NCBI RefSeq assembly: GCF_045039895.1
Contig: NZ_CP108580.1
Span: 6,765,953-6,789,952, forward strand
DNA length: 24,000 bases
Direction of reading: 5' to 3'
From: Streptomyces sp. NBC_01190
GTDB taxonomy: Bacteria > Actinomycetota > Actinomycetes > Streptomycetales > Streptomycetaceae
Under the pieces are notes generated by a model that saw nothing but the letters and a program-made list of their open reading frames with translations, was not told the DNA's origin and made no database searches. The translations under genes were made by a program, and so were the position numbers. Below are positions 1 to 20,610 of this stretch, one piece after another. Position 1 is the stretch's first letter. Every line of letters begins with the position of its first letter.

Positions 1-1
1 C

Positions 2-1356: not shown

Positions 1357-1376
1357 ACACGAGAAAGAAACTGACC

Positions 1377-2066
1377 ATGACGCCGCCACCACCCGAAACC
1401 GCCCACGGCCGGGTCATCACCCTCACCGGCATCGATGGCGCGGGCAAATCGACCCTCGCCTCGCGCCTTCACCAGGCCCTCGCCGACGCTGGCCACCCAG
1501 TCCTCCTGATCGGCAAGAACAACACCACTGTGCCCATGGACACCGAACTGTCCGCCTACCTCGACCGCCTCAACGCACTGGTCTACCGCCGCGATCCCCG
1601 CGTCGCTCAAGCCTGCGGCGACCACTACTGGCTGCTGGCGCTGGCCGCCTGGTACACCCTCCAGGACACCGTCGTGATCCAGCCGGCCCTCGCCGCCGGC
1701 ACCCACGTCATCCTGGACAACGCCCACCACAAGATCCTCGCCCGCTACGCCGTCACCCCCGGCGTCTCCACCCCCCTGGCCGAACAGGTCTTCGCACACC
1801 TCAGCGAACCCGACCTGGTGATCTTTCTGCGGATCGGCGCCCGTGAAGCCCTGGCCCGCAAAGGCGCGTTCACCTCTCTGGAGACCGGGCACTCCGGCGC
1901 CCGCAGGGAGGACTTCGTCCGCTACCAGGACGCGGTCCTGGGCCACCTCCGCGAGCAGGAGCGGCCCGGCGGCTGGCTGTCCATCGACGTCACCGGTATG
2001 GACCGCGATGCCGTCTTCGAAGCGGCGGCAGGCGCGCTCGCCGACCGTCTCCACATCACCATCTGA
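1377..2066 (+). CDS. P-loop kinase, thymidylate kinase (dTMP kinase)-like
   Basis: ATG at 1377 lies 20 nt after the upstream stop. The Walker A ITLTGIDGAGKST is typical of Tmk/deoxynucleoside kinase families. The expected DR(Y/H) motif is replaced by VILDNAHHK, so it is probably not a housekeeping tmk. The ORF-track start at 777 is an Arg-rich over-extension. Confidence 0.65.
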   Translation: MTPPPPETAHGRVITLTGIDGAGKSTLASRLHQALADAGHPVLLIGKNNTTVPMDTELSAYLDRLNALVYRRDPRVAQACGDHYWLLALAAWYTLQDTVVIQPALAAGTHVILDNAHHKILARYAVTPGVSTPLAEQVFAHLSEPDLVIFLRIGAREALARKGAFTSLETGHSGARREDFVRYQDAVLGHLREQERPGGWLSIDVTGMDRDAVFEAAAGALADRLHITI

Positions 2067-2096
2067 CCGACCCCAACCCCACGCGAGGAACACATC

Positions 2097-3014
2097 ATGC
2101 CGGTGACCTGGTCGCAAGGAAGCACCTACGTGTGCCACGGCATCACCTGGGCGACCGGAAACCCCCGTCTCCTGCTCGCCCCGCTCCCCGGCGGGGCGCT
2201 GATCTACGCCGAGATCATGAAGCAGCGACTCGGCTTCCAAGCTGGGGCCGGCCGGTGGTGCACCGGCCGGTACGGCTTCGCCAGCGCCATCCAGGTCGAA
2301 GCCGTCGCCTGCCCCGACCGCGCGCCCGCCAAGCACGGTGGCCAGTGCGCCCGGTGCGCCGCCCAGGACGAGTTCCGCTTCGCCCACCAGTACCACCAAG
2401 GCGGCCATGCTCCGGAAGCAGTCGTCCGGTATATGGCTCAGCCGCACTGGTTGTACCTGGCCACCTTCGCCGACGGTGGCACCAAGGTCGGCACCGCAGC
2501 CGAACCCCGCAAGCAATCCCGACTCGACGAACAAGGCCCGGTGTTCGCCACCTACCTGGCCAGGGCCTCCGACGGCCGCACCGTCCGCTACGCAGAAGAC
2601 GCCCTCACCCAGCGCCTCCACCTGCCCCAGACCGTACGGGCCCAGGCCAAGCTCCGCGCCCTGGCTGATGTCAGCGACTTGTCCGAAGCCGGCGTGGCCC
2701 ACGATGACGCTGTGGACCGCGCCGTTGACGCCCTGGCCGATATGGGTATCCCCCCGGCACCGGAGAAGTGGGCGCCGCCAGCCGAAGGCGACCTGCTCCG
2801 GGCCTTCGGCACGCAGTGCGTGCTTTACCCGCACGACCCGCGTGCGGGCGAGCACGGCTTCACCCCTCTGTCCTGCGTGGGCTCCAACACGCTCGCCGTA
2901 CTGGAGGACACCGAGATGAGTTATCTCCTCGACCTCGGAGCGCTCAAAGGCTGCCGCATCACCTTCGGCGACTTCACCTCCCCAAGGGCAGTCATCCAGT
3001 CATCCCTGTTCTGA
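2097..3014 (+). CDS. Hypothetical protein, DUF2797-like (Cys cluster plus HWLYLATF..GGTKVGT core)
   Basis: ATG at 2097 follows GAGG (2085-2088). Codon bias is good. There is a Cys cluster (C..HGGQCARC) followed by a WLYLATFADGGTKVGTA block, which resembles the DUF2797/T5orf172-type core as I remember it. The family assignment is from memory only. Confidence 0.5.
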   Translation: MPVTWSQGSTYVCHGITWATGNPRLLLAPLPGGALIYAEIMKQRLGFQAGAGRWCTGRYGFASAIQVEAVACPDRAPAKHGGQCARCAAQDEFRFAHQYHQGGHAPEAVVRYMAQPHWLYLATFADGGTKVGTAAEPRKQSRLDEQGPVFATYLARASDGRTVRYAEDALTQRLHLPQTVRAQAKLRALADVSDLSEAGVAHDDAVDRAVDALADMGIPPAPEKWAPPAEGDLLRAFGTQCVLYPHDPRAGEHGFTPLSCVGSNTLAVLEDTEMSYLLDLGALKGCRITFGDFTSPRAVIQSSLF

Positions 3015-3068
3015 CCAGCCGCCCGGATCAGTCGGCCGGGCCCTTCCCCGTGAGTGAGGCATTCCGCG

Positions 3069-3908
3069 ATGACACCACCCGACGCCATCCTCGGCTGGGA
3101 CGAGGACACCACGGCCGAGGCGTACGCCGCCTTCACCCGCAACTTCCCGATGTACCGCTCCACCAGCCGCGATCTCGTATGCCGCGCCCACGTGACCGAC
3201 AGCCGACTTGTCATCGACCTGTGCGGCGGCGCCGGCGCCACTGCCCAAGCGGTCCTCGACGTCGCGCCTGCCCGAACCCGCGTCGTGTCACTGGATTCCG
3301 CAGCCGCCATGCAGCGCGTCGGCCGCCGAACGCTGACAGACTCCCGCCTGAGCTGGATCACCGCTCCTGCCGAACAACTCGCCGACCACGTCCACGAGTC
3401 GGCCGACGCCGTGGTGTGCAACTCGGCGATCTGGAAGACCGATGTTCCCGCCGTTTTCACTGCCGTCCGTCGCGTGCTTCGCCCCAGCGGCCGGTTCGTC
3501 TTCAACATCGGCGGCGGCTTCGCCGGGATCACCCACCCCGACGAGGCGATCACCCACACGAAGCCATCGCTGAACAGCCTGATCCAGCAGATCGCCGCCC
3601 GTGACTTCGGCTACGTCCCGCCCCCCGTCACCGGCTCACCCCCCAAGCTGCCTTTACACAAGGTCACCGAGCATCTGGCCACTGCCGGGATGACCGTCGT
3701 GGAAACCGAGGTCACCGCCCAGCACAGCACGATCGCGGAGAAGAAGGCGTGGCTGTCCATTCCGGTCTTCTCCCGGCCCGACGGAACCCTGACCTTCAAA
3801 CAGCGCATGCAGATCCTCGAGGCGGCGTACGCCCTGATCGATCCCGGCGCACCAACCGTGACGAGCTGGCTCGTCGTCGTAGCGCAACGACCAGGGCGCC
3901 GGCCATGA
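3069..3908 (+). CDS. Class I SAM-dependent methyltransferase
   Basis: Motif I is VIDLCGGAGATAQAVLD, post-I is VVSLDSAAAM, and a VVCNSAIW motif IV-like block is present. ATG at 3069 is preceded by GAGTGAGG (3052-3059). The ORF-track GTG at 3054 is an alternative start. Confidence 0.75.
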   Translation: MTPPDAILGWDEDTTAEAYAAFTRNFPMYRSTSRDLVCRAHVTDSRLVIDLCGGAGATAQAVLDVAPARTRVVSLDSAAAMQRVGRRTLTDSRLSWITAPAEQLADHVHESADAVVCNSAIWKTDVPAVFTAVRRVLRPSGRFVFNIGGGFAGITHPDEAITHTKPSLNSLIQQIAARDFGYVPPPVTGSPPKLPLHKVTEHLATAGMTVVETEVTAQHSTIAEKKAWLSIPVFSRPDGTLTFKQRMQILEAAYALIDPGAPTVTSWLVVVAQRPGRRP

Positions 3909-4444
3909 CTTCCCCTACAGCCGACCTGGACCCAGCGAGCTGCGACCACACCAGCGTCGGGGTGCTCATCTCCGCCCCGGATGGCCTGCTCTTCTTCGAA
4001 CGGGCTACGCCACCAGTCGGATTGGCGCCGGTTGCAGGCCATATCGACCACCACGGCAGCCCGGAGCAAGCCGCCCGCGCTGAGGCGGCCGAAGAGGTCG
4101 GCCTGTCCCTCACCCACCTGCGCCTGCTCCTCACCGGGTGGCGGGCGAACCGGTGCCGCCGTCCCGCCACCGCTGCCGTCGGCCACCAGTGGTGGATCTA
4201 CGAGGCACAGGCGTTCGGCTCCCTCAGCCCGTCCGACCGAGAGGTACGCGCTCCCCGATGGATAGACCCCTACAAGCTCCACCAGCTCGCTCTGCGCACC
4301 GAGGCCTATGCCCAAGGCGGCCTCAGCGATGTCGAGTTCACTAGGCGGCCAGGTATGGCTCCCGTGTGGGTGCGGTTCCTGCACGAACTGAAAATCGTGA
4401 CCCTGGCCGAAGAGGTCCTCGCCGGGATCGACACCATCATCTGA
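3905..4444 (+). CDS. Nudix-fold protein with a degenerate Nudix box
   Basis: ATG at 3905 overlaps the methyltransferase TGA (ATGA, 3905-3908). The Nudix-like segment is GHIDHHGSPEQAARAEAAEEVGL. The EExGL end is kept, but the spacing to the first Gly is non-canonical and RE is replaced by AE. Confidence 0.6.
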   Translation: MTSPTADLDPASCDHTSVGVLISAPDGLLFFERATPPVGLAPVAGHIDHHGSPEQAARAEAAEEVGLSLTHLRLLLTGWRANRCRRPATAAVGHQWWIYEAQAFGSLSPSDREVRAPRWIDPYKLHQLALRTEAYAQGGLSDVEFTRRPGMAPVWVRFLHELKIVTLAEEVLAGIDTII

Positions 4445-4464
4445 CCGGAACCGGGGGAGCAGCC

Positions 4465-4965
4465 TCAACGTGTCGCGGCCACGGGTCTGGACGCGAGTCG
4501 GCGAGCGTACGCGCGAATCCGGGTCCGGTCCTCGGGGAAGACGCTCTCCCACTCCTCATCGAGTGCGACCCACACCGCCGGCTGGCCGCTCTCACCGCTC
4601 AACGGCATGTCACGACCGACGACCGCCACGTAGGACAAGCCCAAGGTGGGCGACCAATCGGAACGGTAGGAGCGGACCGCAGCGGCCCCGGGTTCGGCCA
4701 GCAACTGCGTCCGCAGGCCCGTTTCCTCCTCCAGCTCGCGGGCCGCAGCCGTGCGCGGTGTCTCCCCGGCTTCGACCTTGCCACCGGGCGGCACCCACCC
4801 GCGTACCCGGTGCCTGACTAGCACAACGTGCCTCAAGGCGAGATCGAATACCCAGACTTCGGCGGCGAGGGGATCCATCGGTGCCTGGCGAGCAAGCTCC
4901 AGCCAGGCCCTCGCGTCGTCGAACTCCAGCGCTGCGCACCCCACGTCAGCGGCCACCGCGTCCAT
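4465..4965 (-). CDS. Nudix hydrolase (canonical Nudix box)
   Basis: The box GGKVEAGETPRTAAARELEEETGL fits GX5EX7REUXEEXGU exactly. Start chosen is the ATG at 4965 (MDAVAADV...); a GTG at 4995 is an alternative. The longer ORF-track start at 5184 adds an Arg/Gly-rich extension. It converges on the plus-strand Nudix-like gene with a 20-nt gap. Confidence 0.8.
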   Translation of the reverse strand: MDAVAADVGCAALEFDDARAWLELARQAPMDPLAAEVWVFDLALRHVVLVRHRVRGWVPPGGKVEAGETPRTAAARELEEETGLRTQLLAEPGAAAVRSYRSDWSPTLGLSYVAVVGRDMPLSGESGQPAVWVALDEEWESVFPEDRTRIRAYARRLASRPVAATR

Positions 4966-5167
4966 GAGCACCTGTTCAGTTGCTGCGTACTTCACTCGAC
5001 CGACCCTATGCCGACGCGATCCGAGAGCAGCGCAGGCTCCCCAACGGCACGCTGCACGCCCATCAGGGCCCCGCATGACGGCTGGTGGGCGGCGCCAGCC
5101 CGGCACAGGCGAGAACCCAACGACATACGCGGCGCCACCATGGCGCCCGCTTTCCGAAGGAGCGCCA

Positions 5168-6382
5168 GTGGTCACTGACCTCAACCCCGCCCGCGCCTGG
5201 GTTGTTCTGGGCGGGATTCACCTGCTCAATGGAACCGCGCCGCGTGGCCCGGTCGAACCGATTGTGCTGATTCAGGTGCCCCCGCAGGAGGTATGCGTGC
5301 CAAGCACCACGGTCGTTGTGCCGTGGGCACGTCTCGGCAGTTGCCACGTCACGGCCCTGAAAACCAATGGCGATGAGATCACCACCGGCACGATCCACGG
5401 CAGCACTCTGTTTCCCGACGCCATCGCCGGACACCCGCTTCGCACTCTCGTCGGCGAGGCGGCAGCTCCAGGACTCGTCCCCTTGTGCTACCTCGCCGCA
5501 GATCCTGGCGGCGGCTATCACGTCTATGCGCAGATCCAGTTCCACGCCGAGGACGCCTGCTTCGTCCGCACGACCCGCGAGCCGGTCGGCGCGGGCGCAC
5601 CTCCTGAGGCGCTGCGCTGGCTCGAATCCGCCCTGGCCGCTCACGCCGCGGCAGCACTACGGCTGAACAACCATCAGCGATACTTCCGCACCCACTTCGC
5701 TGGCACCGAACTGGAATACAAGTACAACCTGACGCCCCAAGCGGATATCTGGGCGGTGTCCCACGCTCTACTGCGAGCCTTGACCCACGGCGATGTGCCC
5801 GGCTGCCGACCGGAATACCGGCAGGAGTTCCACAACGCGTACTTCGACAACCACATGTTCGAGGTCACCGGACCCGAGGCAGAGCGTGGCTACGCCTCCC
5901 TCATCCCCACCGCGAACGGTGGACACGTCCTCAAGCGCAAGTGGTTCGACAAGGACGCCCTTGCTCGTCGCGAGCAGATCCACCACCCCGCCATCACGGT
6001 CCAGCCCAACGGCTTCGCGGAGTACCTGCGCTCGGACTTGGGGCTCCAAGTCCGAGCGATGCCCCCCTTCCACAGAGTCCGTTACGACGTGCAGTGCGAA
6101 TCCATGGCCACCGGACACATCTACAGCATCATCTTCGACCGCTGCTCCCTGCTGGCAGCACCCGAAGTGGTCCTGTCCCAATGCGAGATGGAGTACCGGC
6201 GCTCGCGCAGCGTCGTCGAGCGCCCCGAGAGCGAAGTCCTCGACGAGATGGACCGCCTACACCGCTGGCTCCTGTCCTACCTATCAGCGCTCGGTCTCAC
6301 AACCGAAGCCACCTTCTACTCAAAGCTCAGTTTCCTGCGCGACACCCTCGCCGAGCGACCGGACCTGACCCCGCTCCCCTGA
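5168..6382 (+). CDS. CYTH-like (triphosphate tunnel metalloenzyme) domain protein with an unrecognised N-terminal domain
   Basis: GTG at 5168 lies 5 nt after GAAGGAG (5156-5162). The C-terminal ~235 aa carry the CYTH pattern: ExExK (TELEYKYNL), YFDNH, basic strands (VLKRKW, ARREQ, HRVRYD) and a terminal acidic ExE (QCEMEYRR). The ORF-track start at 4751 runs antisense through the Nudix gene and is rejected. Confidence 0.6.
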   Translation: MVTDLNPARAWVVLGGIHLLNGTAPRGPVEPIVLIQVPPQEVCVPSTTVVVPWARLGSCHVTALKTNGDEITTGTIHGSTLFPDAIAGHPLRTLVGEAAAPGLVPLCYLAADPGGGYHVYAQIQFHAEDACFVRTTREPVGAGAPPEALRWLESALAAHAAAALRLNNHQRYFRTHFAGTELEYKYNLTPQADIWAVSHALLRALTHGDVPGCRPEYRQEFHNAYFDNHMFEVTGPEAERGYASLIPTANGGHVLKRKWFDKDALARREQIHHPAITVQPNGFAEYLRSDLGLQVRAMPPFHRVRYDVQCESMATGHIYSIIFDRCSLLAAPEVVLSQCEMEYRRSRSVVERPESEVLDEMDRLHRWLLSYLSALGLTTEATFYSKLSFLRDTLAERPDLTPLP

Positions 6383-6413
6383 GCACCCCGCTTCGTTGTG
6401 AAGACCTCGCTGA

Positions 6414-7574
6414 CTATGCGTTAACAGGCAACGCGACCAGACCACGCACCAGGCGGGTTCGGCGCCATTCCAGTTGGTCGGCCGGGACGGCGAGCCTGAG
6501 CCGGGGGAAACGGGTCAGAATCGCCCGCAGAGCGATGTCAGCTTCCGCTCTGGCGAGCGGGGCACCGACGCAGCGGTGGATGCCGTGGCCGAAGGCGAGG
6601 TGGCCGGTGGCCTCACGGTTGAGGTCGAGCTGGTCTGGGGCCGGGAACCGCTGCGGGTCTCGGTTGGCGGCGCCGAGGGTGATCAGCACGGGAACATTGG
6701 CCGGGATCTCGGTGCCGCCGAGTGTGATGGCTTCGGTGGTGTATCGGAAAGTGGCCGTGCTGACGGGCGAGTCGAAGCGCAGCAGTTCCTCCAAGGCGGC
6801 CGGGATGCTCTCCGGTTTGCTGCGCAGGCGCTCCTGTTCGGTGGGGTGCTGGAGGAGTGCCAAGGCGGCGTTGCCGAGGAAGTTGGTGGTGGTCTCGTGT
6901 CCGGCGACCAGCAGCAGCACCGCCAGAGAGACCAGCTCCTCCTCACTGAGGCGGTCTTCCCCGTCGCGAGCCGCGATGAGGCCGTCGAGGAGTGAGCCGC
7001 CGGGCCGCGAGCGCTTGGCCGCGATAAGCCCGGTCATGTACTCGGCCATGGAGTGCGAGGCTTCGTCGATGAGGTCGGGCTTGCCGGCGGCGAACAACTG
7101 GGCGGACCAGCGCTGGACGTCGGGCCGGTCGGTTTCCGGCACGCCGAGCAGTTCGCAGATCACGATGACCGGCAGCGGTACGGCCAGGCTGGCGACGAGG
7201 TCGATCTGTTCGCCGAGGGGCCACTGATCGAGCAGGCGGTCGGTCGTTTGCGCGATGAACGGGCGCAGTTCAGCGACAGCGCCAGTGGTGAATGCCTTGG
7301 TCACCAGCTTGCGGAGCCTGGTGTGGTGGGGCGGATCGGTGGCCAGCATGTTGTGTGCGACTGCCGGGTGCAGCCGCCGCCGTGAGCCCTTGTCGGCGAA
7401 GAAGGCGGCGGTGTCTTTCGAGAGCCGGGGATCGGCGAGGGCCTGCCGGGCCTCGGCGTAGCCGAGGACCAGGTAGTTGATGTGCCCGCCCGAGCCGGTG
7501 GGGACGGCCTGCACCGGGCACGCGGAGCGCATGGCCGCGTAGGTGGCGTACGGGTCTTGAGTGGGGTCGGTCAT
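6414..7574 (-). CDS. Cytochrome P450
   Basis: Heme-binding loop FGHGIHRCVGAPLA, ExxR (EELLRF) and I-helix LLLVAGHETT are all present. ATG at 7574 lies 4 nt downstream of the preceding gene's stop, which indicates the same operon. The ORF-track start at 7589 is a TTG. Confidence 0.9.
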   Translation of the reverse strand: MTDPTQDPYATYAAMRSACPVQAVPTGSGGHINYLVLGYAEARQALADPRLSKDTAAFFADKGSRRRLHPAVAHNMLATDPPHHTRLRKLVTKAFTTGAVAELRPFIAQTTDRLLDQWPLGEQIDLVASLAVPLPVIVICELLGVPETDRPDVQRWSAQLFAAGKPDLIDEASHSMAEYMTGLIAAKRSRPGGSLLDGLIAARDGEDRLSEEELVSLAVLLLVAGHETTTNFLGNAALALLQHPTEQERLRSKPESIPAALEELLRFDSPVSTATFRYTTEAITLGGTEIPANVPVLITLGAANRDPQRFPAPDQLDLNREATGHLAFGHGIHRCVGAPLARAEADIALRAILTRFPRLRLAVPADQLEWRRTRLVRGLVALPVNA

Positions 7575-7578
7575 GTGG

Positions 7579-8763
7579 TCAGGCTCCAACTGGTTCGGGC
7601 TGCTCGCCGCCGGCGACGCGCGCAGTACGTTGCGAATAGGCGCTGGCCACCTGGAGGAGCCACTGGGTCTCTTCGCGGAGGTCTTTGCGTGACGGGGCTT
7701 CCGCCGGCGGCAGGGCGACTTCCTCGGCGAGGAGACCGGCCTTCATTGCCGCAAGTGCCGCCTTTACGACGGCAGCCTCGATGGTCGCGGCCTGGTCCTC
7801 CGTTACGGCGTCGGTAGTCCGCTGGGCCGTCTCCAGGTCCTTGCGGGAGCGGTAGGGGCGAAGGGCGAGGATGCCGTCGCTGATCTCGATGACCCGGCGC
7901 TGGAGCAGGAAGTCCGCGTCGGTGGATGCGTTGGCGTTGACGTCTTCGGCCGGGAGAACGATCTCCGGCATGGCGGCCGACAGGTCCTGCCAGAGCGGAC
8001 CGAGTGCTTCGAAGGACCGCACCTCCCAGCGTCGGCGGTGGGCCTGACTGACCGGGTAGACCACGGCCGGCAGGGTGAGGCCGACGCAGATCAGGAGAAC
8101 CGCGAGCGCGGGGGACGTCACGCTGAAGACGCAGGGCGAGGACGTCAAGGTCGAGCAGTGCTGGTGATCAGGGATCAGGTGGAATCCCAGGCCCAAGGAG
8201 ACGAGAACCGTCACCTTGTACGCCGCGTAGACGAGCGCGAACAAGCAGCCGGCGGCTGCGAGGCGGAGGCCAAGCCGGACGCTGCTCCGGCGAGTCGACT
8301 TGGACTGCCGCAGAGCCTGCTGCAGGAAGTCGATGATGGCGAAGCCGAGGTAGGTGATGAACACGAGCAGGTAGAGCGCGTACACCTGCGGCGATCGGTG
8401 CGTCATCTGCTCGTAGGCGAAGAGCACCGTCATGCCGAAGACGGAGGCAGCCAGGAGAAGGAGGCGCAGCCGTATGCGGCGTCGTGCTTCCGCGGATTCC
8501 AGGTTGAGCTGGAAGGAGACGGCCACGACGGAGGCGGCGGCGGCCAGGGAGGCGGAGTTGCTCAGCAACCGGGCCACGTCTGGTACGACTGCCTCGACGG
8601 CGTTCTCGACCAGCGGCGCGTAGGAGGCGAAGGCCACCGCGAAGGAGGCGAGCAGGCTTCCCATGGCCCAGGTTCCCGCGGGGCGCGGGGTGCCCCGCCC
8701 GAGGATCCAGTAGCCGGCGGCCACTGCCAGGAGACAGGCCATGCCAAGAAAGAGGGCATTCAT
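7579..8763 (-). CDS. Polytopic membrane protein, MAB_1171c family/DUF6545-like
   Basis: About 6 hydrophobic helices are followed by a soluble C-terminal domain (WEVRSFEALGPLWQDL...LRPY). ATG at 8763 overlaps the ImmA-like stop (ATGA, 8760-8763). This matches the membrane partner usually found after actinobacterial ImmA-like 'toxin' genes (from memory). Confidence 0.7.
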   Translation of the reverse strand: MNALFLGMACLLAVAAGYWILGRGTPRPAGTWAMGSLLASFAVAFASYAPLVENAVEAVVPDVARLLSNSASLAAAASVVAVSFQLNLESAEARRRIRLRLLLLAASVFGMTVLFAYEQMTHRSPQVYALYLLVFITYLGFAIIDFLQQALRQSKSTRRSSVRLGLRLAAAGCLFALVYAAYKVTVLVSLGLGFHLIPDHQHCSTLTSSPCVFSVTSPALAVLLICVGLTLPAVVYPVSQAHRRRWEVRSFEALGPLWQDLSAAMPEIVLPAEDVNANASTDADFLLQRRVIEISDGILALRPYRSRKDLETAQRTTDAVTEDQAATIEAAVVKAALAAMKAGLLAEEVALPPAEAPSRKDLREETQWLLQVASAYSQRTARVAGGEQPEPVGA

Positions 8764-9305
8764 TGTGAGCGGAACCGGCCTTTCTTGATGGGCTGGGCGA
8801 AGAGTGCATCCCAACTGTCCGACCCCTTTTCAGGTCGGCGGGAAGGCGATATGCGTTCGCGGTACATACGCTGGCGAATGATGGTCGCCATCATCTCCGC
8901 TTCGCGTTCATCCGCGGTCGAGTAGCTCGTGCGCCCCGACATGCGCATCACCAGAGTCGGATCCACCCCGAGGGAATGCGCCGTGGAGGCGTCCACTTCC
9001 AGGCTCCCGGGGTGGTCGAGGAACACGTGCATCAGTTCGTGGGCGAGTATGTGCCGTTGATGGTGGACGGACGTCCCCTCCTCGTAGAAGAGGAGGTCGG
9101 CCTGTGGCGTCTCCAGGCGTATGCCGCAGGGGGCGTCGATTGCCCCGAGCGTGTTCAAGGGCTTCAAGAAGATGGGCTTCCCGCGAACTGCGGTTATCGC
9201 TTCACGCAGCTCCCTCGTAGTGAAGCGATACGGCAGGGACAAGCGGTCGACTTTCTGCTCACAGGATGTGCGCAGCAGATTGTCGTCGACCCAAGGCAAA
9301 GACAT
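8760..9305 (-). CDS. ImmA/IrrE-family (M78-like) zinc metallopeptidase, annotated in actinomycetes as a TA-system toxin component
   Basis: HExxH motif in HHQRHILAHELMHVFLDH. The preceding block GKPIFLKPL...LLFYEEGTS and the later YSTADEREAEMMATII are typical of this family. ATG at 9305 is preceded by GAGGGGGG. Confidence 0.8.
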   Translation of the reverse strand: MSLPWVDDNLLRTSCEQKVDRLSLPYRFTTRELREAITAVRGKPIFLKPLNTLGAIDAPCGIRLETPQADLLFYEEGTSVHHQRHILAHELMHVFLDHPGSLEVDASTAHSLGVDPTLVMRMSGRTSYSTADEREAEMMATIIRQRMYRERISPSRRPEKGSDSWDALFAQPIKKGRFRSQ

Positions 9306-9614
9306 GGTAGTTCCCCCCTCAGCCGGAGTTGTTTCAACTGCGAGCGACTGATGAGGAGAGGATGCCAAGAAGGTTGTGGATTTGGTGTTTATAGGAACTG
9401 GTACTTCCGGTTACGCACGGTGTTGCTGCGCCGGGTGTGACGCAAGAGGTGACTGTCCATCGACAACCGCCCTTTGGCTCTCTTGAGGCCGCGGCCCCCG
9501 ATATTTCGGGGGTCGGATCGCGCGCCAAGTCCCCCTCCGTGGGGCCGTCGTCCCTTATGTCTGACTACGGAGGATGACGAACGGGCGATTTTCTGACGGA
9601 AAGTCACGGCATGT

Positions 9615-9630
9615 TGTGACCCACATCACA
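9615..9630. promoter_or_regulatory. Perfect palindrome TGTGA-N6-TCACA directly upstream of the MmyB-like regulator gene
   Basis: TGTGACCCACATCACA at 9615-9630 ends 1 nt before the ATG at 9632. It matches the CRP/FNR-type consensus spacing. It could equally be an operator for one of the local HTH regulators. Confidence 0.4.
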
Positions 9631-9631
9631 G

Positions 9632-10495
9632 ATGGTCGCCCTACGATCTGTCCCTATGGACTCCCGCGAGGGGCGAGGCGATGACAGATTCCGAGGCGAG
9701 TCCCTGACTGAGCTGCTGCGCTCATGGCGCCGGCGCTTGGACCCGCGGGAGGTCCCTGGGCTGGAGTCCACCGGCAGGCGTGGCGATGGTCTGTCCCAAC
9801 GGGACGCCGCCCACTTGGGCGGGGTCAGTGAGCGGTGGTACCGAGCCCTGGAGGCCGGAAAGTCCGCCAACTACTCGGTCGAGTTCCTCGACCGCCTTGC
9901 CATGGGACTGGGGTTAAGCGGTGCCGAGCGGCACGCCCTGTACTTGAGGGCCACCGGAAGGCCGCCAACGCTCCTGGCCGCCCCAGAGCCTGATGCTGCC
10001 GCAGAGATGGATGAGCAGCTCCAGCAGTTCCTGGACACCCAACCTCCCAACCCCGCCTACGTGTCCGACGTGGCGTGGAACATCGTCGGGCGCAATCAGC
10101 CATTTCGCGCATGGTTCCCCTGGGCTGTTCGCGATGGGAATCTCATGCGTTGGATTCTCCTGGATCCGGAAGCACGTGACCGGCTCGTCAATTGGCGCGA
10201 AGACTGGGCCCGTCCGGCCTTGGGGCAAATCCGCTATGCGCTGAGTCAGTATCCCAAGAACGAAGCCCTTCGCCGCTTGGAACGCGATGTCCTTGCGGGA
10301 CCTTGGGACATGCGCGAGATGTGGGGCCGGCGAGAAGTCTACGAACACCCCGAACGCGACGTGCGCAGACTGAGGTTGCCGTACCACGCGGGTCGGGAAG
10401 TCCCGGTCCGAACCATCGATCTGGCCCCCGCGCGCAGCGCACGGCTTCGCGTGGTCGTGTTCATGGAAGGCCGAGGGGGCGCCTCCACTAAGTGA
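9632..10495 (+). CDS. MmyB-like HTH transcriptional regulator (XRE-type HTH plus MmyB-like ligand-binding domain)
   Basis: N-terminal LTELLRSWRRRLDP...GLSQRDAAHLGGVSERWYRALEAGK. The C-terminal domain has PAYVSDVAWNIVGRN, NLMRWILLDPEARD and a terminal RLRVVVF, as in MmyB-family regulators. The start could be the ATG at 9656 (leaderless, after TACGAT at 9642-9647) rather than 9632. Confidence 0.8.
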   Translation: MVALRSVPMDSREGRGDDRFRGESLTELLRSWRRRLDPREVPGLESTGRRGDGLSQRDAAHLGGVSERWYRALEAGKSANYSVEFLDRLAMGLGLSGAERHALYLRATGRPPTLLAAPEPDAAAEMDEQLQQFLDTQPPNPAYVSDVAWNIVGRNQPFRAWFPWAVRDGNLMRWILLDPEARDRLVNWREDWARPALGQIRYALSQYPKNEALRRLERDVLAGPWDMREMWGRREVYEHPERDVRRLRLPYHAGREVPVRTIDLAPARSARLRVVVFMEGRGGASTK

Positions 10496-10535
10496 AGGGC
10501 GGCGCGGGATTCCCGCCCGATGGTTCTGCGGCCGA

Positions 10536-10982
10536 TTATTCGTCGTCCAGCAGCTCCGAGCTGTCCGAGTCGTCCGGCATGCCTTCGAGCCGCCGGGCCT
10601 GGTCGATCACCGCATTCAGCATCTGCAGGCTGGATGTGCTGAGTCCGTTGGCGCGAAGGGCGACCCGGCGCACCTCCTGGTCGCGCATCGCCGCGACCAC
10701 CTTGATCTCGGCCCGCGCCCGCTCCGCCACCTCCTCATCGAAGAAGTAGCCCGGTGGGACGCCGAAGAAGCCCGCCAGTGCGCGGATCGTCTGCATCTTG
10801 GGATTCGTGTTGGTCCCGGTGCGCAGTTGCTGGATGGCGCTCGCCGAGATGGCCACCCCGGAGGTCTCCCGGATGCCCTGTGAGACCTCCGCGTACGTGA
10901 AGGAGCCCCTTCCCTTCGGGCGGACCTCCTGGAACAGGTAGTCGAGCAGCTCCGCGAAGGAGCGCTCCGGTGTCTCGGTCAT
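10536..10982 (-). CDS. XRE-family HTH regulator (the type normally paired with ImmA-like/MAB_1171c genes)
   Basis: FAELLDYLFQEVRPKGRGSFTYAEVSQGI...ISASAIQQLRTGTNTNPKMQTIRALAGFFGVPPGYFFDEE. ATG at 10982 lies 6 nt after AAGGAG; an ATG at 11000 is an alternative. The ORF-track start at 11246 is an over-extension. Confidence 0.8.
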   Translation of the reverse strand: MTETPERSFAELLDYLFQEVRPKGRGSFTYAEVSQGIRETSGVAISASAIQQLRTGTNTNPKMQTIRALAGFFGVPPGYFFDEEVAERARAEIKVVAAMRDQEVRRVALRANGLSTSSLQMLNAVIDQARRLEGMPDDSDSSELLDDE

Positions 10983-11417
10983 CTCCGGCTCCTTCGTCAT
11001 ACCTGCGATCCTATCCACTCCAGTGGCGTCCCTGCTCTCCGGGGCGTCATATCTCGACATTGCAGTTGACGTAGGCGGGTTATTGCGGTGTACGTTGACC
11101 ACCGTATCCGTCCAGTGCAGTGTTCCTTGCCTGGTGGGAGTGGGTGTGAAGGCTGGACTTGTGCCAGGGGTCGCCCTATGGTTCTGGTCCCGGCGCAAGA
11201 TCGCCGGATGCCGGAGAGGCGGGCAGGGAGGGGAGGGGCCATGCATGGACGAGGGCCGTGACGACGGCTGGGCTTAACGCGACCGGCGCCCGGGAGCTAC
11301 GAACTCCAAGGCGCCGGGCCGGCACCGCGAAGGGCGCCGATTCACATCCCGCGGGCGGCGGGGCCTTCTCTGCACGAGAACCGCCGCACCGCGCTCCTAC
11401 GAACAACGGAGTATCGC

Positions 11418-11741
11418 ATGCTCACCGCCCAAGGCGGAAGTTCGGCCTGCCCGGACGCCGACCGCCCGCATCGCCTCGCCGCCCAGCTCGCCGACATGAT
11501 CCCCGGCGTGGCCACCCTGCGCGTCAGCCTCACCGGCCCGACGCAGACCTGGCCCCATCCCCACGCCGTGGCCAAGGACAGGGCGGGGCAGCCGGTGGAG
11601 CTGAGTCGGGCGACCGCGAAGATTGCGGCGCGCTGGATCCTGCGGGTCTGGCCGGAGGCCGACTGGACCCGGCCCCATATCTTCGACGTGGCCAGCGCCA
11701 CGCTTACCCGCAGCGACCTGGTCGCGGGCCGGGGCCGCTGA
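11418..11741 (+). CDS. Hypothetical small protein (first gene of the plus-strand mobile-element operon)
   Basis: ATG at 11418 is preceded by ACGGAG. Third-position GC bias is strong throughout. The stop at 11739-11741 lies 1 nt before the next gene's GTG. No family was recognised. Confidence 0.5.
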   Translation: MLTAQGGSSACPDADRPHRLAAQLADMIPGVATLRVSLTGPTQTWPHPHAVAKDRAGQPVELSRATAKIAARWILRVWPEADWTRPHIFDVASATLTRSDLVAGRGR

Positions 11742-11742
11742 C

Positions 11743-12762
11743 GTGTCACGGATACGCCCCGTAAAGCCCGAGACCTGGACGAGCGAGACGCTCGCTGCGG
11801 TCAGCATCCCCGCCATGGTCACCTTCCTGGCCATGACCAACATGGCCGACGACCATGGCCGTCACCGCGACAACGCGGCAATCATTTTCGGGCTGATCTG
11901 GCCGCTGCGCGCCGAGCACAGCGCGGTCCACGTCGAGGAAGACCTCACCCAGCTCGAAGACGTCGGAGCGATCTGCCGGTACACCGGCTGCGACGGCAAG
12001 CGCTACTTCCACTACCCGACCTGGTTCAAGCACCAGAAGATCGACAAGCCCAGCGCGTCGCGGCTCCCCGCCTGCCCGAAGTGCGCTCCCGAGCGGTGCG
12101 GGGTCTGCAAGGGCCCGTGCGCCCAGCGCGCCGACGCCTCCCCGAAGGCTCCCGGAGGATTCGGGGAGGACTCTCCGAACCTTCCCGGAACCCTCGAACC
12201 GCCCGCGCGGCCCGCGCCGACCCCTCCCGCACCCACCCCGGACACCCCTACGCCCGCCCAGGACGCCCCCGGCGCCCCCGCCACCACCACCCAGGGTGCG
12301 GGTGACAAACCCGCAGGTCAGACGCGACTCGCCGAAACCTCTCCGAAGGCTCCCCGAAAGGTCGGGGAGGGCTCGGCGCCTGGATCTAGGATCTTGGATC
12401 CTGGATCTTTCTTCCCTACGGGGCGCGATGCGCCCAACGCGAGCAGCGTCTCGGCGAAGGAGCTGATCGGCGAGTACGTCGCCTCGTGCCGGGAGCGCCC
12501 GCCGGGCGATGTGATCGGCCACCTCGGGGGCGTCACCAAGAAGCTCCTCGCCGAGGGCATCGCGGTGGAGCACGTGCGGGCCGGGCTGCGGCGCTTCGGC
12601 GAGATCCAGGGGCACCCGTCGCGGCTGCCGAGCCTGGTCAACGACGCGATGAACGCACCCGCCGCCGGTTTGGCCGGTCCGGGATTCCGGCCTAACGTGC
12701 CCGCTCACAGGGCGTGGACCAACCCGGTCGACGCCGCCACCGCCTACGCCGAGGAGCTGTGA
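11743..12762 (+). CDS. Putative replication organiser/initiator-like protein (assigned by context)
   Basis: GTG at 11743. There is a structured N-terminal domain (AMVTFLAMTNMADDHGRHRDN...YFHYPTWFKHQKIDKPSASRLPACPKC), then a Pro/Ala-rich linker and a C-terminal helical domain. The stop overlaps the start of the DnaC/IstB-like ATPase (TGATG), the usual position for a helicase-loader partner. Function is inferred from position only. Confidence 0.45.
   Translation: MSRIRPVKPETWTSETLAAVSIPAMVTFLAMTNMADDHGRHRDNAAIIFGLIWPLRAEHSAVHVEEDLTQLEDVGAICRYTGCDGKRYFHYPTWFKHQKIDKPSASRLPACPKCAPERCGVCKGPCAQRADASPKAPGGFGEDSPNLPGTLEPPARPAPTPPAPTPDTPTPAQDAPGAPATTTQGAGDKPAGQTRLAETSPKAPRKVGEGSAPGSRILDPGSFFPTGRDAPNASSVSAKELIGEYVASCRERPPGDVIGHLGGVTKKLLAEGIAVEHVRAGLRRFGEIQGHPSRLPSLVNDAMNAPAAGLAGPGFRPNVPAHRAWTNPVDAATAYAEEL
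12137..12409. repeat. Cluster of inverted and direct repeats inside the replication-organiser gene
   Basis: There is a 10-bp perfect inverted repeat, CCTCCCCGAA (12137-12146) with TTCGGGGAGG (12160-12169). A related 8-bp inverted repeat is CTCCCCGA (12350-12357) with TCGGGGAG (12362-12369). Both sit in imperfect ~40-bp direct repeats encoding SPKAP..GE. They are followed by four tandem heptamers (T/A)GGATC(T/C) at 12381-12408. Confidence 0.6.
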
Positions 12763-13466
12763 TGCGCACCAAGACCCGCGAACCGCAGACCCTCGGCGGA
12801 TCCGGAACCCTGGAGCGGATGGCCCGGATCCTGGCCGCCCGGAACATCGACCCCGCAGCCGCCGCCGTGGCGGACGAGCCGGAGCCGTACTCGCCGCTGG
12901 ACGCGCTACGGGCCTCGATGCCGCCGCGCTACCGGGACGCGGTGGCCGACCACCCGCAGGTCCTGGCCTGGTGCCGGGAGGTCGCCGCGCAGGCGGTCGC
13001 GCCGGGCGTCGGTGCCCGTCGGCAGGTGTGCACCGGCCCCAGCCTGCTGATGGCGGGGGTGGTCGGCGCGGGCAAGACGCACCAGGCGTACGGCGCGGTC
13101 CGCGCGTTGGTCGGGGCGGGGGTCGGGGTGCGGTGGCGGGCGACGACGGCGGCCGACCTGTACGCCGAACTGCGGCCGAGGGCCGGGGTGGACAGCGAGC
13201 GGGAGCTGGCGGCGGTGGCCCGGGTGCCGCTGCTGATCCTGGACGACCTCGGCGCGGCGAAGGCGTCGGAGTGGACCGAGGAGATCACGTACCGGCTGGT
13301 CAACCGCCGGTACAACCACGAGCTTCCGACCCTGATCACCAGCAACCTGCGGATCGGGGACCTGCGGGCCTATGTCGGTGACCGCGTCGCCAGCAGGCTC
13401 ACTCAGATGACCACGCGGGTCGAGTTCGACCTGGTCGACCGTAGACGCACCCGCGCTGCCGCCTGA
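12762..13466 (+). CDS. DnaC/IstB-like AAA+ ATPase (helicase-loader type)
   Basis: Walker A GVVGAGKTH, Walker B LLILDDLG and sensor LITSN are present. ATG at 12762 overlaps the upstream TGA. Confidence 0.8.
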   Translation: MRTKTREPQTLGGSGTLERMARILAARNIDPAAAAVADEPEPYSPLDALRASMPPRYRDAVADHPQVLAWCREVAAQAVAPGVGARRQVCTGPSLLMAGVVGAGKTHQAYGAVRALVGAGVGVRWRATTAADLYAELRPRAGVDSERELAAVARVPLLILDDLGAAKASEWTEEITYRLVNRRYNHELPTLITSNLRIGDLRAYVGDRVASRLTQMTTRVEFDLVDRRRTRAAA

Positions 13467-13582
13467 CCTGCGGTCAGACGGTCCGGCGGGCCCGCCCCCA
13501 GCGCGCCGCCCGCACGAACTTCCCGACCAGGCACCTCCGCCGGCGCCGACTGCGCGCGGAGGGCGATCGGAGCACACCGCGC

Positions 13583-14149
13583 ATGCCCAGCACGACGAAC
13601 ACCCCTGCCCGACACCGCTCGCTGGGGGACCAGACCTGGCAGAACCAGGCGGTCTGCCAGAGCACCGATTACCACCGGGTCGACCCCGCAATTTTCTTCC
13701 CCTACCCCGAGGAGATGGACAAGATCCGCGCAGCCAAGGCCCTGTGCGCTCAGTGCCCCGTCCGCCAGACCTGTCTGGACGCAGCCCTGGAAAACGGCGA
13801 CACCCACGGCATCCGGGGCGGCCTGACCGGGGAGGAACGTGCCCCGATGCACACCCGGCTCCCCGCTCGCCTGGACTACTCCCGCGTCAACGCCGCCGTC
13901 GCCGGACGCGACATCCACCTCACCTCCGCCGAACGCCAGGCCGTCATCCACGCCGCCTACCGCCACGGCGTGCCCGCACACCGCCTGGCGTCGATCCTGA
14001 AGGTCGACGAGGAGACCGCGCAGAAGCGCTACCGCGAGATCCGCCGTGCGCTGCGCCACCGCGACGCGGAGCCCACCACACCCGCCAGCCCGCCGCCGGA
14101 GCAGGGCGGACAGCACCTGGGCCGCGACGACTTCGGGACGGCGGCGTGA
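13583..14149 (+). CDS. WhiB-like (Wbl) Fe-S protein with a C-terminal HTH-like extension
   Basis: Four Cys in Wbl spacing (C...CAQCPVRQTC) and a GIRGG turn (the GIWGG equivalent). The extra ~100 aa tail contains AERQAVIHAAYRHGVPAHRLASILKVDEETAQKRY, which looks like sigma region 4/LuxR. Confidence 0.75.
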   Translation: MPSTTNTPARHRSLGDQTWQNQAVCQSTDYHRVDPAIFFPYPEEMDKIRAAKALCAQCPVRQTCLDAALENGDTHGIRGGLTGEERAPMHTRLPARLDYSRVNAAVAGRDIHLTSAERQAVIHAAYRHGVPAHRLASILKVDEETAQKRYREIRRALRHRDAEPTTPASPPPEQGGQHLGRDDFGTAA

Positions 14150-15249
14150 GCACCGCCAGCGTGCCGGAGACGGTGCTCGTCACCGGCTGGGACCGCCTGG
14201 CCGTGATCGTCCTGGGCGGCGCCGGGTGCGCCCTGTCGGCCAGCGCCCTGATGCAGATGGCCATCGCCATCCACATCCGCCCCGCCCTGTGCTGGCTCTT
14301 CCCGCTGGTGGTCGACGGGTTCATCGCCTACGGCATCCGGGCGCTGCTGGTCCTGCGCACCGCCCCGCTGCGCGCCCGCCTGTACGTCTGGACGCTGGTG
14401 GGCACCGCGACCGGGGTCAGCGTCTGGGCCAATGCCCTGCACGCGGTCCGGCTCAACGAGACCGCCCCGGCCGGCGGACTGCAGCTCGGCGACACGGTGG
14501 TCGCCTACCTGTCCACGGTCGCCCCGCTCGCCCTGGCCGGAGCGGTCCACCTGTACATCCTCATCGCCCGGGGCCCGGACAACCACGCCGCCCGCACCGA
14601 CCGGACTGGCCGTCACGGTCAGGTCGGTCACCCCGGTCAGGCCGACCGATCCGGTCAGTCTGACCCCGCCAGGGGCATCGCGGTCACCGCGGCTGACCGG
14701 GCCGGTCAGAGGTCACCGCACGCCGGTCAGTCCGGTGCCGGTCAGCCGGTCACCGCGCCGACCGACCCGCCCTCGGCGGCCGGGAACCCGCCCACCCTGG
14801 TCACCCGGTCACTGACCGGGGCCGGTGACCCGGCGGGCGGCACCGGCTCGGTCAGCGGTCACCACGACACCCGCGTTCGACGGACGCAGGCCGCTGACCT
14901 GGGCGGTCAGCCGGACAGCGGCCCGGCGGTCAGTGACCGACCGGCCGCCACCGAGCCGGTCACCACCGGCCCGGTCAGCCACCCGCCGGTCACTGACCGG
15001 CCGGTTACTCCTGCGCCGGTCGGTGACCGCGAGCCCCGCAGAGCCGGTGACCGGCGCCCTGACCTGGACACCGAGGAGCTGCTGGAGATCGCCCGGTCAG
15101 CGGTCAGGGCCCAGGACAAGTTGACCCGGCAGGTGGTTGCCCAGGCCATCCGGGGTCAGCGGATCCCGCTGTCCAGCGACACGCTGACCGCCCTGATGGC
15201 CCAGCTCCGCGAACAGCGCGACGAGCCGGTCACCACCTCCCGCGACTGA
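14146..15249 (+). CDS. DUF2637-like membrane protein with a low-complexity middle region and a C-terminal helical domain
   Basis: GTG at 14146 overlaps the WhiB-like stop (GTGA). N-terminal TM helices (VIVLGGAGCALSASALMQMAIA, LFPLVVDGFIAYGIRALLVL, YVWTLVGTATGVSVWANALHAV) are as in DUF2637 proteins of actinobacterial plasmids and ICEs. The ORF-track start at 13744 is an Arg-rich over-extension. Confidence 0.65.
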   Translation: MSTASVPETVLVTGWDRLAVIVLGGAGCALSASALMQMAIAIHIRPALCWLFPLVVDGFIAYGIRALLVLRTAPLRARLYVWTLVGTATGVSVWANALHAVRLNETAPAGGLQLGDTVVAYLSTVAPLALAGAVHLYILIARGPDNHAARTDRTGRHGQVGHPGQADRSGQSDPARGIAVTAADRAGQRSPHAGQSGAGQPVTAPTDPPSAAGNPPTLVTRSLTGAGDPAGGTGSVSGHHDTRVRRTQAADLGGQPDSGPAVSDRPAATEPVTTGPVSHPPVTDRPVTPAPVGDREPRRAGDRRPDLDTEELLEIARSAVRAQDKLTRQVVAQAIRGQRIPLSSDTLTALMAQLREQRDEPVTTSRD

Positions 15250-15297
15250 CCGCACCGCGCGGGGGCGGGTGACCGGGCCGGACAGCCCGGCCGGTCA
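14617..15297. repeat. Dense array of GGTCA/TGACC motifs, often as CCGGTCA(G/C)
   Basis: Hand count gives 24 GGTCA and 14 TGACC in ~680 bp. This includes two identical 15-bp palindromes, CCGGTCACTGACCGG (14805-14819 and 14986-15000). The motif falls in all three codon phases of the host CDS. Confidence 0.8.
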
Positions 15298-15306
15298 CCC
15301 GCCCCC
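15261..15306 (+). terminator. Very stable GC-rich hairpin after the DUF2637 gene
   Basis: GGGGGCGGGTGACCGG (15261-15276) is perfectly complementary to CCGGTCACCCGCCCCC (15291-15306), and an inner CCGG/CCGG pairing is possible. It begins 12 nt after the stop at 15249. There is no U-tract, which is common in Streptomyces. It contains the GGTCA/TGACC motif. Confidence 0.6.
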
Positions 15307-15352
15307 GAAGTGCCACCTTCCGACTTCCTCCCACCGACTGGAGAGCACGACC

Positions 15353-15577
15353 ATGCGCACCAACCCTGCCGCCCCCGCCGAGGTGGAGACCTGGCTGGCC
15401 GTTCTGCACGAGCGCGGGCACCTCTACCGCGCCGAAACCGGACCCGACCGCACCTGGATCGTGCAGCGAGGCCGTCACAGCCGCCCGTGGACCCTGCACC
15501 ACCCGGTCCTGGCGATGGACTGGATCGAGGACGTCCTGCGCGACGTCCACCAGAGCGAAGCGGAGTCGGATCGGTGA
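15353..15577 (+). CDS. Hypothetical small protein (74 aa)
   Basis: ATG at 15353 lies 8 nt after GGAGAG. Codon bias is good (MRTNPAAPAEVETWLAVLHERGHLYRAE...). No family was recognised. Confidence 0.5.
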   Translation: MRTNPAAPAEVETWLAVLHERGHLYRAETGPDRTWIVQRGRHSRPWTLHHPVLAMDWIEDVLRDVHQSEAESDR

Positions 15578-15644
15578 CCGCCGACGACCCGGTGGCCGCC
15601 ACCCCTGACCAGCAGCGACAGGTCAACTCGGCTCCTGGCGGGTC

Positions 15645-15716
<72 letters not shown>

Positions 15717-15747
15717 AAGCAAGCCGCGAGGGCGTCACCCGGACGGG

Positions 15748-20535: not shown

Positions 20536-20540
20536 ACATC

Positions 20541-20573
20541 GGTCCGGCAGGCCGGCGCTCGGCCTGCCGGACC
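20541..20573 (+). terminator. Hairpin after the relaxase gene
   Basis: GGTCCGGCAGGCCG (20541-20554) and CGGCCTGCCGGACC (20560-20573) form a perfect 14-bp stem with a 5-nt loop. It begins 6 nt after the stop at 20535. Confidence 0.6.
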
Positions 20574-20610
20574 GGTCGAAGTCTCTGGACAACCGGCCCC
20601 ACCTGCTGTT

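Follow-up and report, generated by a model that had tools for sequence, protein, structure and literature searches.

Can a few regulatory genes at the end of a plasmid-like module act as the switch that induces it? The question is raised by a stretch of high-G+C actinomycete DNA from Streptomyces sp. NBC_01190 (contig NZ_CP108580.1, positions 6,765,953 to 6,789,952), referred to here as the window, by which the whole 24,000 nucleotides (nt) are meant. In it, genes for an XRE-family regulator, a small HExxH protein resembling the ImmA/IrrE peptidases, a DUF6545 (MAB_1171c) membrane protein and a cytochrome P450 lie, together with a MmyB-like regulator gene, beside a set of replication and mobilization genes. 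An earlier reading of the letters (the original prediction) took the first three as a recurrent triad, split by the MmyB-like gene and extended by the P450, in the position of an ImmR-ImmA type switch. Comparison with related loci shows that the four genes form a module which, in this lineage, is joined permanently, with the MmyB-like regulator, to one end of a ~12-kb replication/mobilization backbone. The best reading of the arrangement, adopted tentatively and by analogy, is a protease-gated EspR-like regulator module that has been co-opted or is carried by the element.

The four cassette genes are on the minus strand. The XRE gene (10536-10982) encodes a 148-amino acid (aa) homolog of EspR. 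The HExxH protein (8760-9305, 181 aa) has the metallopeptidase site and a sub-threshold Peptidase_M78 match, and its stop codon overlaps the start of the DUF6545 gene (ATGA). The membrane protein (7579-8763, 394 aa; PF20182 E 3e-30, NF042915 E 9e-69) is followed after 4 nt by the gene for a CYP107-like P450 (6414-7574, 386 aa; PF00067 E 2e-31), the last gene of both the cassette and the conserved block. On the plus strand, the MmyB-like gene (9656-10495, 279 aa; HTH_31 and MLTR_LBD domains, PF17765 E 5e-23, PF13560) points away from the protease operon and toward XRE. The XRE gene is in turn divergent from orf107 (11418), after which come the replication initiator, DnaC-like ATPase, WhiB, DUF2637, NikA/MobC and relaxase genes. 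This plus-strand backbone, orf107 to orf144 (11418-21045; Pfam, NCBIfam, PHROGs), is collinear in ~42 other species. Across 6414-10982, the mapped open reading frames (ORFs), the domains found by Pfam and NCBIfam, and the genes called on two window-identical public contigs are in agreement. Gene content, order and strands are thus as originally described, as is the divergence of XRE from the plasmid-like module.

Relatives of the HExxH protein were found in 304 genomes of a species scan that used one genome per species. The 80 closest of these 304 loci, all from other species and taken with 10-kb flanks, were queried with all window proteins; the presence counts given here refer to the evaluable loci of this set (denominators 33-78). 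The DUF6545 gene lies directly 3' of the HExxH gene in all 75 of 75 loci, the P450 gene follows it in 72 of 75, and an XRE gene is upstream in 76 of 78. The replication/relaxase backbone is present in 42 of 75 loci. A MmyB-like gene occurs in 39 of 78, and in 37 of 41 loci with the backbone versus 0 of 33 without it. The P450 is therefore a regular fourth member, and the MmyB-like gene marks the element-borne form. The original prediction correctly placed the latter between the XRE and ImmA-like genes and the former 4 nt behind the membrane gene, but took both as peculiarities of this copy, which, given these counts, they are not. A contiguous triad of XRE, a protein named "toxin", "regulator component" or "ImmA/IrrE", and MAB_1171c does recur, as it had stated, on a Pseudonocardiaceae contig and on Streptomyces plasmids. 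Basal triads that lack the P450 are found on one Pseudonocardiaceae contig and some plasmids; the peptidase is never missing. In a plasmid paralog only 36% identical, a P450 again follows the membrane gene.

The loci fall into two halves. About half share, as DNA homology, a ~12.3-kb block that corresponds to window positions 6424 to 21045-21230 minus an intron; the other half consist of a contiguous XRE/protease/DUF6545/P450 tetrad in almost entirely different neighborhoods. The exact window arrangement is present in 35 loci, and homology to other loci ends at 6424-6439, just beyond the P450 stop codon. The element layout was seen in ~42 other species, with collinear proteins that are 55-95% identical. 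More divergent versions of the element, with proteases 50% and relaxases 52% identical and with other replication genes, still have XRE, MmyB, protease and DUF6545 at the same end. Across loci, relaxase identity correlates with that of the protease (r 0.6) and of XRE (r 0.54). The window locus is an ordinary member of a widespread, uncharacterized family and not an aberrant copy. Variants of the layout also occur. In Streptacidiphilus fuscans, an otherwise similar element has a short-chain dehydrogenase gene between the MmyB-like and protease genes (9188-9892 of its locus), another small-molecule enzyme added to the cassette. Streptomyces sp. PvR034 carries two complete tetrads in tandem (5495-9159 and 9421-12842 of its locus); one copy is 27-48% and the other 54-63% identical to the window proteins, so these are paralogous modules side by side.

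The MmyB-like protein combines an XRE-type helix-turn-helix (HTH) with a PAS-like ligand-binding domain (PF17765, 82.4 bits, cut-off 26.3; PF13560, 33.2 bits, cut-off 27); no sequence match to PDB entries was detectable. Phylogenetic footprinting of the region between the MmyB and protease genes revealed GGAA-N7-TTCC palindromes, one or two per locus, some 105 and 90 bp upstream of the protease start. Such boxes are present in 38 of 39 loci with a MmyB gene (two or more in 29) versus 4 of 40 without one; of these four, three are loci of the backbone type or a short contig. The background frequency is 0.012 in 200 bp. The window keeps a single box, CGGAAGTACCAGTTCC (9394-9409, 89-104 bp upstream of the protease start), its only match to the pattern where 0.14 would be expected; the second box of most relatives has degenerated. 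This co-occurrence argues that the MmyB-like protein controls the protease/DUF6545/P450 operon through these candidate operators, and it does not suit the original view that the MmyB-like gene merely splits the triad. Pseudo-palindromic "B-boxes" have been proposed for MmyB, whose family binds pseudo-palindromes and a fatty-acid-like ligand (PMC3406030). The MmyB-like gene also contains one TTA codon (codon 87, 9914-9916), the sole TTA among twelve checked genes of the block, which recalls the bldA-dependent mmyB. Control of the gene by bldA was rejected: TTA codons occur in 10 of 39 MmyB homologs, at varying positions, versus 0-6% of loci for the other block genes.

The XRE protein aligns with Mycobacterium tuberculosis EspR over nearly its whole length (PDB 3r1f, chain A; query 7-135 versus chain residues 6-133, E 6.6e-25) at 42% identity. 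It has an N-terminal HTH, a C-terminal dimerization domain and an acidic tail, and is, on this alignment, a full-length EspR homolog. It is also the most conserved protein of the block (median identity 82%). It is 35-43% identical to XRE proteins from contiguous triads in other places, which puts it in the triad-associated family, as the original prediction required. In PADLOC it gave weak matches to capH (8.9e-5) and the RmrA HTH. EspR needs its C-terminus to dimerize and function, and autoregulates via spaced TTTGC-type sites (PMC3315491); a literature search turned up nothing linking EspR-like proteins to a metallopeptidase in Streptomyces. A canonical espR in the same triad was considered and rejected, as the espR of M. 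kansasii is flanked by GDT1 and DUF6474 genes.

Four boxes upstream of XRE (11015-11124) are conserved in 16 element loci, and largely also in stand-alone tetrads: a palindrome CCACTGGAGTGG at 11015-11026, GTCAAC..GCAAT repeats at 11059-11070 and 11082-11099, and AACACTGCACTGGA at 11111-11124. These are candidate binding sites of the EspR-like protein. The box nearest XRE overlaps the putative XRE promoter. The farthest box is 30 bp from the -35 of the putative backbone-operon promoter, TGGACT and TATGGT with a 17-nt spacer (11154-11182, plus strand). Both promoters were assigned by conservation: the two backbone hexamers fall within conserved blocks, and the -10 is kept in related plasmid copies. 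From the position of the boxes, an effect of the XRE protein on the backbone operon is plausible. A common XRE operator was also looked for upstream of the protease operon, where the motifs differ between subgroups.

The HExxH protein is the putative protease of the module. In an alignment of 83 diverse members, 25-40% identical to the window protein, the invariant residues are H89, E90, H93, R125, E133, A136 and E137. The HExxH zinc site is thus accompanied by a downstream glutamate in a helix of the E-x-x-A-x-x-x-A type, and the third zinc ligand would be E133 or E137. Peptidase_M78 was the sole recurrent Pfam match, at E of 1 or less in 20 of 23 members and 0.01 or less in 30 of 83; the best member reached E 5.4e-6, and all stayed below the family cut-off. 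Scans of NCBIfam with this protein, and of PADLOC and PHROGs with both the peptidase and the membrane protein, gave no match. A structure model of medium confidence (mean predicted local distance difference test score, pLDDT, 71.5) had IrrE/PprI or PrpR as all ten of its best Foldseek matches in the PDB (E 0.03-0.2, probability 0.8-0.99, TM-score 0.33-0.42), with BlaR1 at rank 37. Relatives are named "regulator component" or "toxin" by NCBI, and matches to the peptidase profile form 2,800 clusters at 50% identity.

The DUF6545 protein matches its families well above threshold (NF042915, 232 bits, cut-off 100; PF20182, 105.7 bits, cut-off 24.4). Its AlphaFold model (pLDDT 82.6) shows seven long helices and, C-terminal to them, a helical domain. 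The protein therefore models as a receptor-like bundle of seven predicted transmembrane helices with a cytoplasmic helical DUF6545 domain. Two invariant cysteines, C203 and C211, lie in the loop before helix 7; positive-inside reasoning would put this loop and the N-terminus outside. The NCBIfam family is called a "putative transporter"; Foldseek matched no transporter fold to the model. A transposon mutant of M. abscessus MAB_1171c had lower cefoxitin and clarithromycin minimum inhibitory concentrations (MICs) and formed ~50% less biofilm (PMC8707978). Translational coupling to the peptidase, and a natural full-length protease-DUF6545 fusion in one distant relative (P0422, the only one found), make the membrane protein the obvious candidate to gate or anchor that peptidase. 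Six other apparent fusions (P0097, P0106, P0108, P0110, P0113 and P0114) were rejected as Rosetta-stone proteins; they are independent in-frame deletion remnants with five different junctions. In these remnants, which come from several Streptomyces genomes, the transmembrane region is gone and the N-terminal portion of the peptidase runs straight into the C-terminal DUF6545 domain; in two of the six, HExxH is mutated to HGxxH. The recurrent loss may mean that the membrane part is costly. The P450 is a standard CYP107-type enzyme; in the PDB, its closest relatives are TamI, PikC, Vdh and EryF (E 1e-99 to 1e-86).

From these parts we infer regulator proteolysis, sensing by the membrane protein, a role for the P450 and control of the backbone operon, arranged as follows. 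The EspR-like protein would bind the boxes lying between the XRE and backbone promoters, autoregulating its gene and influencing the backbone operon. The membrane protein would probably hold or gate the peptidase, to which it is translationally coupled, and the peptidase would inactivate the regulator by cutting off, or cutting into, its C-terminal dimerization domain, as IrrE acts on DdrO and ImmA on ImmR. In the element-borne form, the MmyB-like regulator, acting via the GGAA-N7-TTCC boxes, would also set transcription of the peptidase, membrane protein and P450 genes; a small lipophilic ligand would thereby decide whether the protease arm is made, and the P450 plausibly makes or destroys that ligand. 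A much more specific version, in which DUF6545 is a seven-helix receptor gating the M78-like protease, the EspR-like, nucleoid-associated regulator is destroyed, MmyB and the P450 feed in where the module is element-borne, and an extracellular or lipophilic small-molecule signal rather than DNA damage switches on replication and transfer, is quite unlikely.

A number of observations weigh against the preferred reading, beginning with the separate occurrence of its two halves. An ImmR-ImmA-type module would be specific to, and required by, its element; here the tetrad is without the backbone in 33 of 74 loci, and the backbone is without the cassette on two large plasmids, S. angustmyceticus p1 and Streptomyces sp. 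BHT-5-2 p1. The 32 contiguous stand-alone tetrads are flanked by 27 different sequences upstream and 31 downstream. Their neighbors, 134 proteins with 171 Pfam families, have no family in more than two proteins (integrases, Schlafen-like helicases, baeRF and AbiEii-like ATPases are represented by two each), and the relaxase, DUF2637 and replication families are not among the families listed for them. Two further stand-alone tetrads adjoin McrBC, methylase and UvrD helicase genes, or nSTAND-WD40 and RHS genes. The tetrad is thus itself an accessory module, one found in variable regions. The two plasmid backbones have relaxases 76-80% identical to that of the window. Both lack the XRE, protease, DUF6545 and P450 genes, and the XRE-upstream boxes are absent from their orf107 leaders. 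Neither the tetrad nor the backbone needs the other, since each occurs alone. The association of the cassette with the relaxase, DUF2637, WhiB and replication genes is itself a stable one, found even at 50% protease identity and with other replication genes; the induction-switch idea gains from the boxes directly beside the putative backbone promoter and loses by this independence.

Further points against the preferred reading concern its individual components. The XRE boxes lie upstream of the backbone -35, centered at about -72 and further, which is not a classical repressor position. A consensus promoter scan called no promoter there, and the putative backbone promoter matches the consensus at 8 of 12 positions. 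On the window protein, PF06114 (Peptidase_M78) gave E 0.012-0.015 and 15.5-15.9 bits, short of the cut-off of 22, and two family profiles searched against PDB sequences found no IrrE/PprI or other M78 structure; for these reasons the protein is called M78-like, not a proven M78 member. The label "ImmA-like" of the original prediction thus holds for the HExxH site and the invariant glutamate and not at the profile cut-off. The P0422 fusion could be a gene-call artifact. For the DUF6545 model, Foldseek returned only weak, generic seven-transmembrane or G-protein-coupled-receptor-like matches (E 0.03, TM-score ~0.36). No paper found in the literature search mentions DUF6545, and MAB_1171c appears only in the one transposon-mutant study. 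No peptidase or DUF6545 gene lies beside the M. kansasii espR, so that the synteny of the triad does not extend to canonical espR.

The main rival treats the cassette as autonomous cargo, a self-contained signal or stress module that regulates its own operon only, the divergence of XRE from orf107 being a by-product of insertion. Stand-alone tetrads in 31-33 species with 27-31 different flanks speak for it, and so do XRE boxes that travel with the XRE gene and stay conserved in stand-alone copies, a backbone that exists without the cassette and retains its own leader hairpins and -10, and the location of the cassette at the extreme end of the conserved block. Cargo usually varies, however, and this cassette has kept the same position through deep backbone divergence that includes replaced replication genes. 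The backbone promoter has no other repressor candidate beside it, and the restriction of MmyB to the element-borne form suggests adaptation to the element. On balance, autonomous cargo is a somewhat unlikely explanation.

Two other explanations have some support and fit fewer of the facts. The genes might constitute an operon for handling a small molecule, with which the cell resists, breaks down or exports a lipophilic compound. In such an operon, the P450 would modify the compound and DUF6545 would transport it, XRE and MmyB would be conventional regulators, and the HExxH protein would be an accessory. The "putative transporter" name, the MIC and biofilm phenotypes of the MAB_1171c mutant (PMC8707978), the tightly coupled CYP107-like P450 and the fatty-acid-like ligands of the MmyB family (PMC3406030) all point that way. 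A seven-transmembrane bundle with a cytoplasmic helical domain and no known transporter fold does not, and the P450 is missing from basal Pseudonocardiaceae and some plasmid triads. The supposed accessory, the peptidase, is by contrast always present; its catalytic residues are invariant, and its translation is coupled to that of the membrane protein. We consider such an operon decidedly improbable. A toxin-antitoxin or abortive-infection module, with the HExxH or membrane protein as toxic effector and XRE as antitoxin or repressor, would account for the NCBI label "toxin" of some homologs and for the independent in-frame deletions that drop the transmembrane region in several genomes. Xre-COG2856 pairs have been predicted to be toxin-antitoxin-like modules (PMC2701414), stand-alone copies are sometimes near McrBC, N6 methylase, nSTAND-WD40, RHS, Schlafen-like helicase, baeRF or AbiEii-like genes, and a caspase-WD40 gene flanks the window element. 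Against this, no PADLOC model matches the peptidase, membrane protein or P450, the XRE match to capH is weak, defense-type families are minor among the neighbors (at most 2 of 134 proteins each), COG2856 proteins were not toxic in S. pneumoniae and E. coli (PMC4257102), and the P450 would have no obvious role. This explanation is very improbable.

The backbone to which the cassette is joined consists of plus-strand genes. Behind orf107 are the replication initiator (11743-12762; PHROG 2149, E 1.8e-27), a DnaC/IstB-like ATPase (12762-13466), WhiB (13583-14149), DUF2637 (14146-15249), NikA/MobC (18125-18781), relaxase (18781-20535) and orf144 (20611-21045). A group II intron (15642-18183, minus strand) lies between the DUF2637 region and NikA/MobC. 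Its ORF (15748-17514) encodes a reverse transcriptase/maturase/HNH protein (RVT_1, GIIM and HNH domains), and its domain V/VI is the RF00029 match at 15642-15718 (67 bits). The intron is specific to the window; in the 40-odd related elements (loci L003-L062) it is absent, and 15641 joins 18184.

The ~230-nt leader of orf107 and the replication gene holds two hairpins, which belong to the backbone and not to the cassette. The first (11283-11317, 14-bp stem) is nearly invariant in 16 loci, and the second (11355-11387) is highly conserved. The orf107 leaders of the cassette-less plasmids retain the -10 and the first hairpin, the stem of which is kept by compensatory changes in both copies (L098 from S. 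angustmyceticus and L100 from BHT-5-2). On the minus strand the hairpin folds with a z-score of -2.0, on the plus strand with one of -0.7, and T-G pairs in it fit the strand antisense to orf107. No known RNA family was found by Rfam in either of the two intergenic regions, hairpins included. The leader hairpin could reflect an antisense RNA, or else a structure formed by the DNA, for example an origin. The S. angustmyceticus copy also has a gene for a 480-aa MmyB-like HTH protein with a long C-terminal extension (L098 8813-10255), divergent from the orf107 homolog and separated from it by ~1 kb of non-coding DNA. A similar MmyB-like tblastn match is at the same position in BHT-5-2 (L100 9154-9876). 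A MmyB-type regulator may be the native partner of this backbone.

The conserved ~12.3-kb block contains no integrase, transposase or detectable terminal repeats. Its ends have only 9-12-bp chance repeats and no attachment repeats, and there is no tRNA in the window. In two relatives examined, the 10-kb flanks of the protease gene contain no integrase or excisionase. Across L003-L062 the block is at different chromosomal sites, including the centers of 8-11-Mb chromosomes. To its left, the window (1-6382) encodes a methyltransferase, a DUF2797 protein, two Nudix hydrolases and a 404-aa unknown protein, and beyond the window on L001 (8884-16506) are a nucleotide kinase, GTP cyclohydrolase I and a radical-SAM protein. 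This flank looks like a 7-deazapurine-type nucleoside or DNA-modification cluster, and it is not shared with the 97%-identical element of S. polygonati (L003). Just outside the other end of the element, the minus-strand gene at 21999-23918 encodes a 639-aa protein with an N-terminal caspase-like region (PADLOC caspase, E 2.7e-7) and at least seven WD40 repeats. The stand-alone tetrad of S. capitiformicae (L084) adjoins a 1349-aa nSTAND1-WD40 protein.

To our knowledge, pairs of an XRE regulator and an M78 peptidase serve as derepression switches of integrative and conjugative elements, phages, the Deinococcus radiation response and the cyclic-oligonucleotide-based antiphage signaling system (CBASS), and in every studied case the switch is soluble and responds to DNA damage or an element-encoded signal. 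The closest parallel is ImmR-ImmA (ICEBs1; TnSmu1, PMC10233336). There, as here, an XRE-type regulator and a small HExxH peptidase of M78/COG2856 type are on a mobile element, and the regulator gene is divergent from the main operon of the element; in the window both genes are within the element (6424-21230), beside its main operon. The differences are substantial. The regulator here is EspR-like rather than CI-like, the peptidase is marginally M78, an opposite-strand MmyB-like gene separates the two genes, and the peptidase is translationally coupled to a seven-transmembrane protein and a P450. The conserved block has no integrase or excisionase, and the module is also found away from any element.

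IrrE(PprI)-DdrO and CapP-CapH of CBASS are likewise pairs of an M78 peptidase and an XRE repressor. IrrE cleaves the dimerization domain of DdrO (PMC12828697), and the M78 peptidase of CapP-CapH inactivates its XRE repressor by C-terminal cleavage and de-represses the adjacent operon (bioRxiv 10.1101/2022.04.27.489752). IrrE/PprI is among the best structural matches of the HExxH protein, and the XRE-capH match is weak. Those peptidases carry a GAF-like or single-stranded-DNA-sensing domain and respond to DNA damage, whereas the 181-aa protein described here has no such domain and has a membrane partner instead; its targets would be its own promoter and perhaps a plasmid-like operon. BlaR1/MecR1-BlaI/MecI offers a membrane sensor with a gluzincin protease that removes a repressor, and the natural protease-DUF6545 fusion resembles it in form. 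In the present family there is no penicillin-binding sensor domain, protease and membrane protein are normally separate, the protease is M78-like rather than M56, and the repressor family differs.

The two regulators have relatives of their own. Like EspR (Rv3849) of M. tuberculosis, to which it aligns at full length, the XRE protein has several conserved boxes spaced out in front of its gene; the espR promoter shows the same pattern (PMC3315491). Neither a peptidase nor a DUF6545 gene adjoins canonical espR, the protein here has an extra acidic tail, and its boxes have a TTGC-type core that does not match TTTGC[TC][GA]. The MmyB-like protein shares the Xre-type HTH and PAS-like ligand-binding domain of MmyB (methylenomycin cluster) and MltR (PDB 3pxp), and also pseudo-palindromic boxes beside a divergent operon and, in this copy, a TTA codon as in mmyB (PMC3406030). 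It differs in that it is not in a biosynthetic cluster and its TTA is not conserved (10 of 39, varying positions). The element-borne form offers a direct read-out, the replication and mobilization genes, together with defined candidate operators. If the proposed logic is true, it would give a first function to DUF6545/MAB_1171c and to EspR paralogs outside mycobacteria, and would amount to a membrane-gated, possibly small-molecule-gated switch. Set beside the known systems, this family would be a new version of the XRE/M78 switch, with a membrane partner, usually a P450, and an EspR-type regulator.

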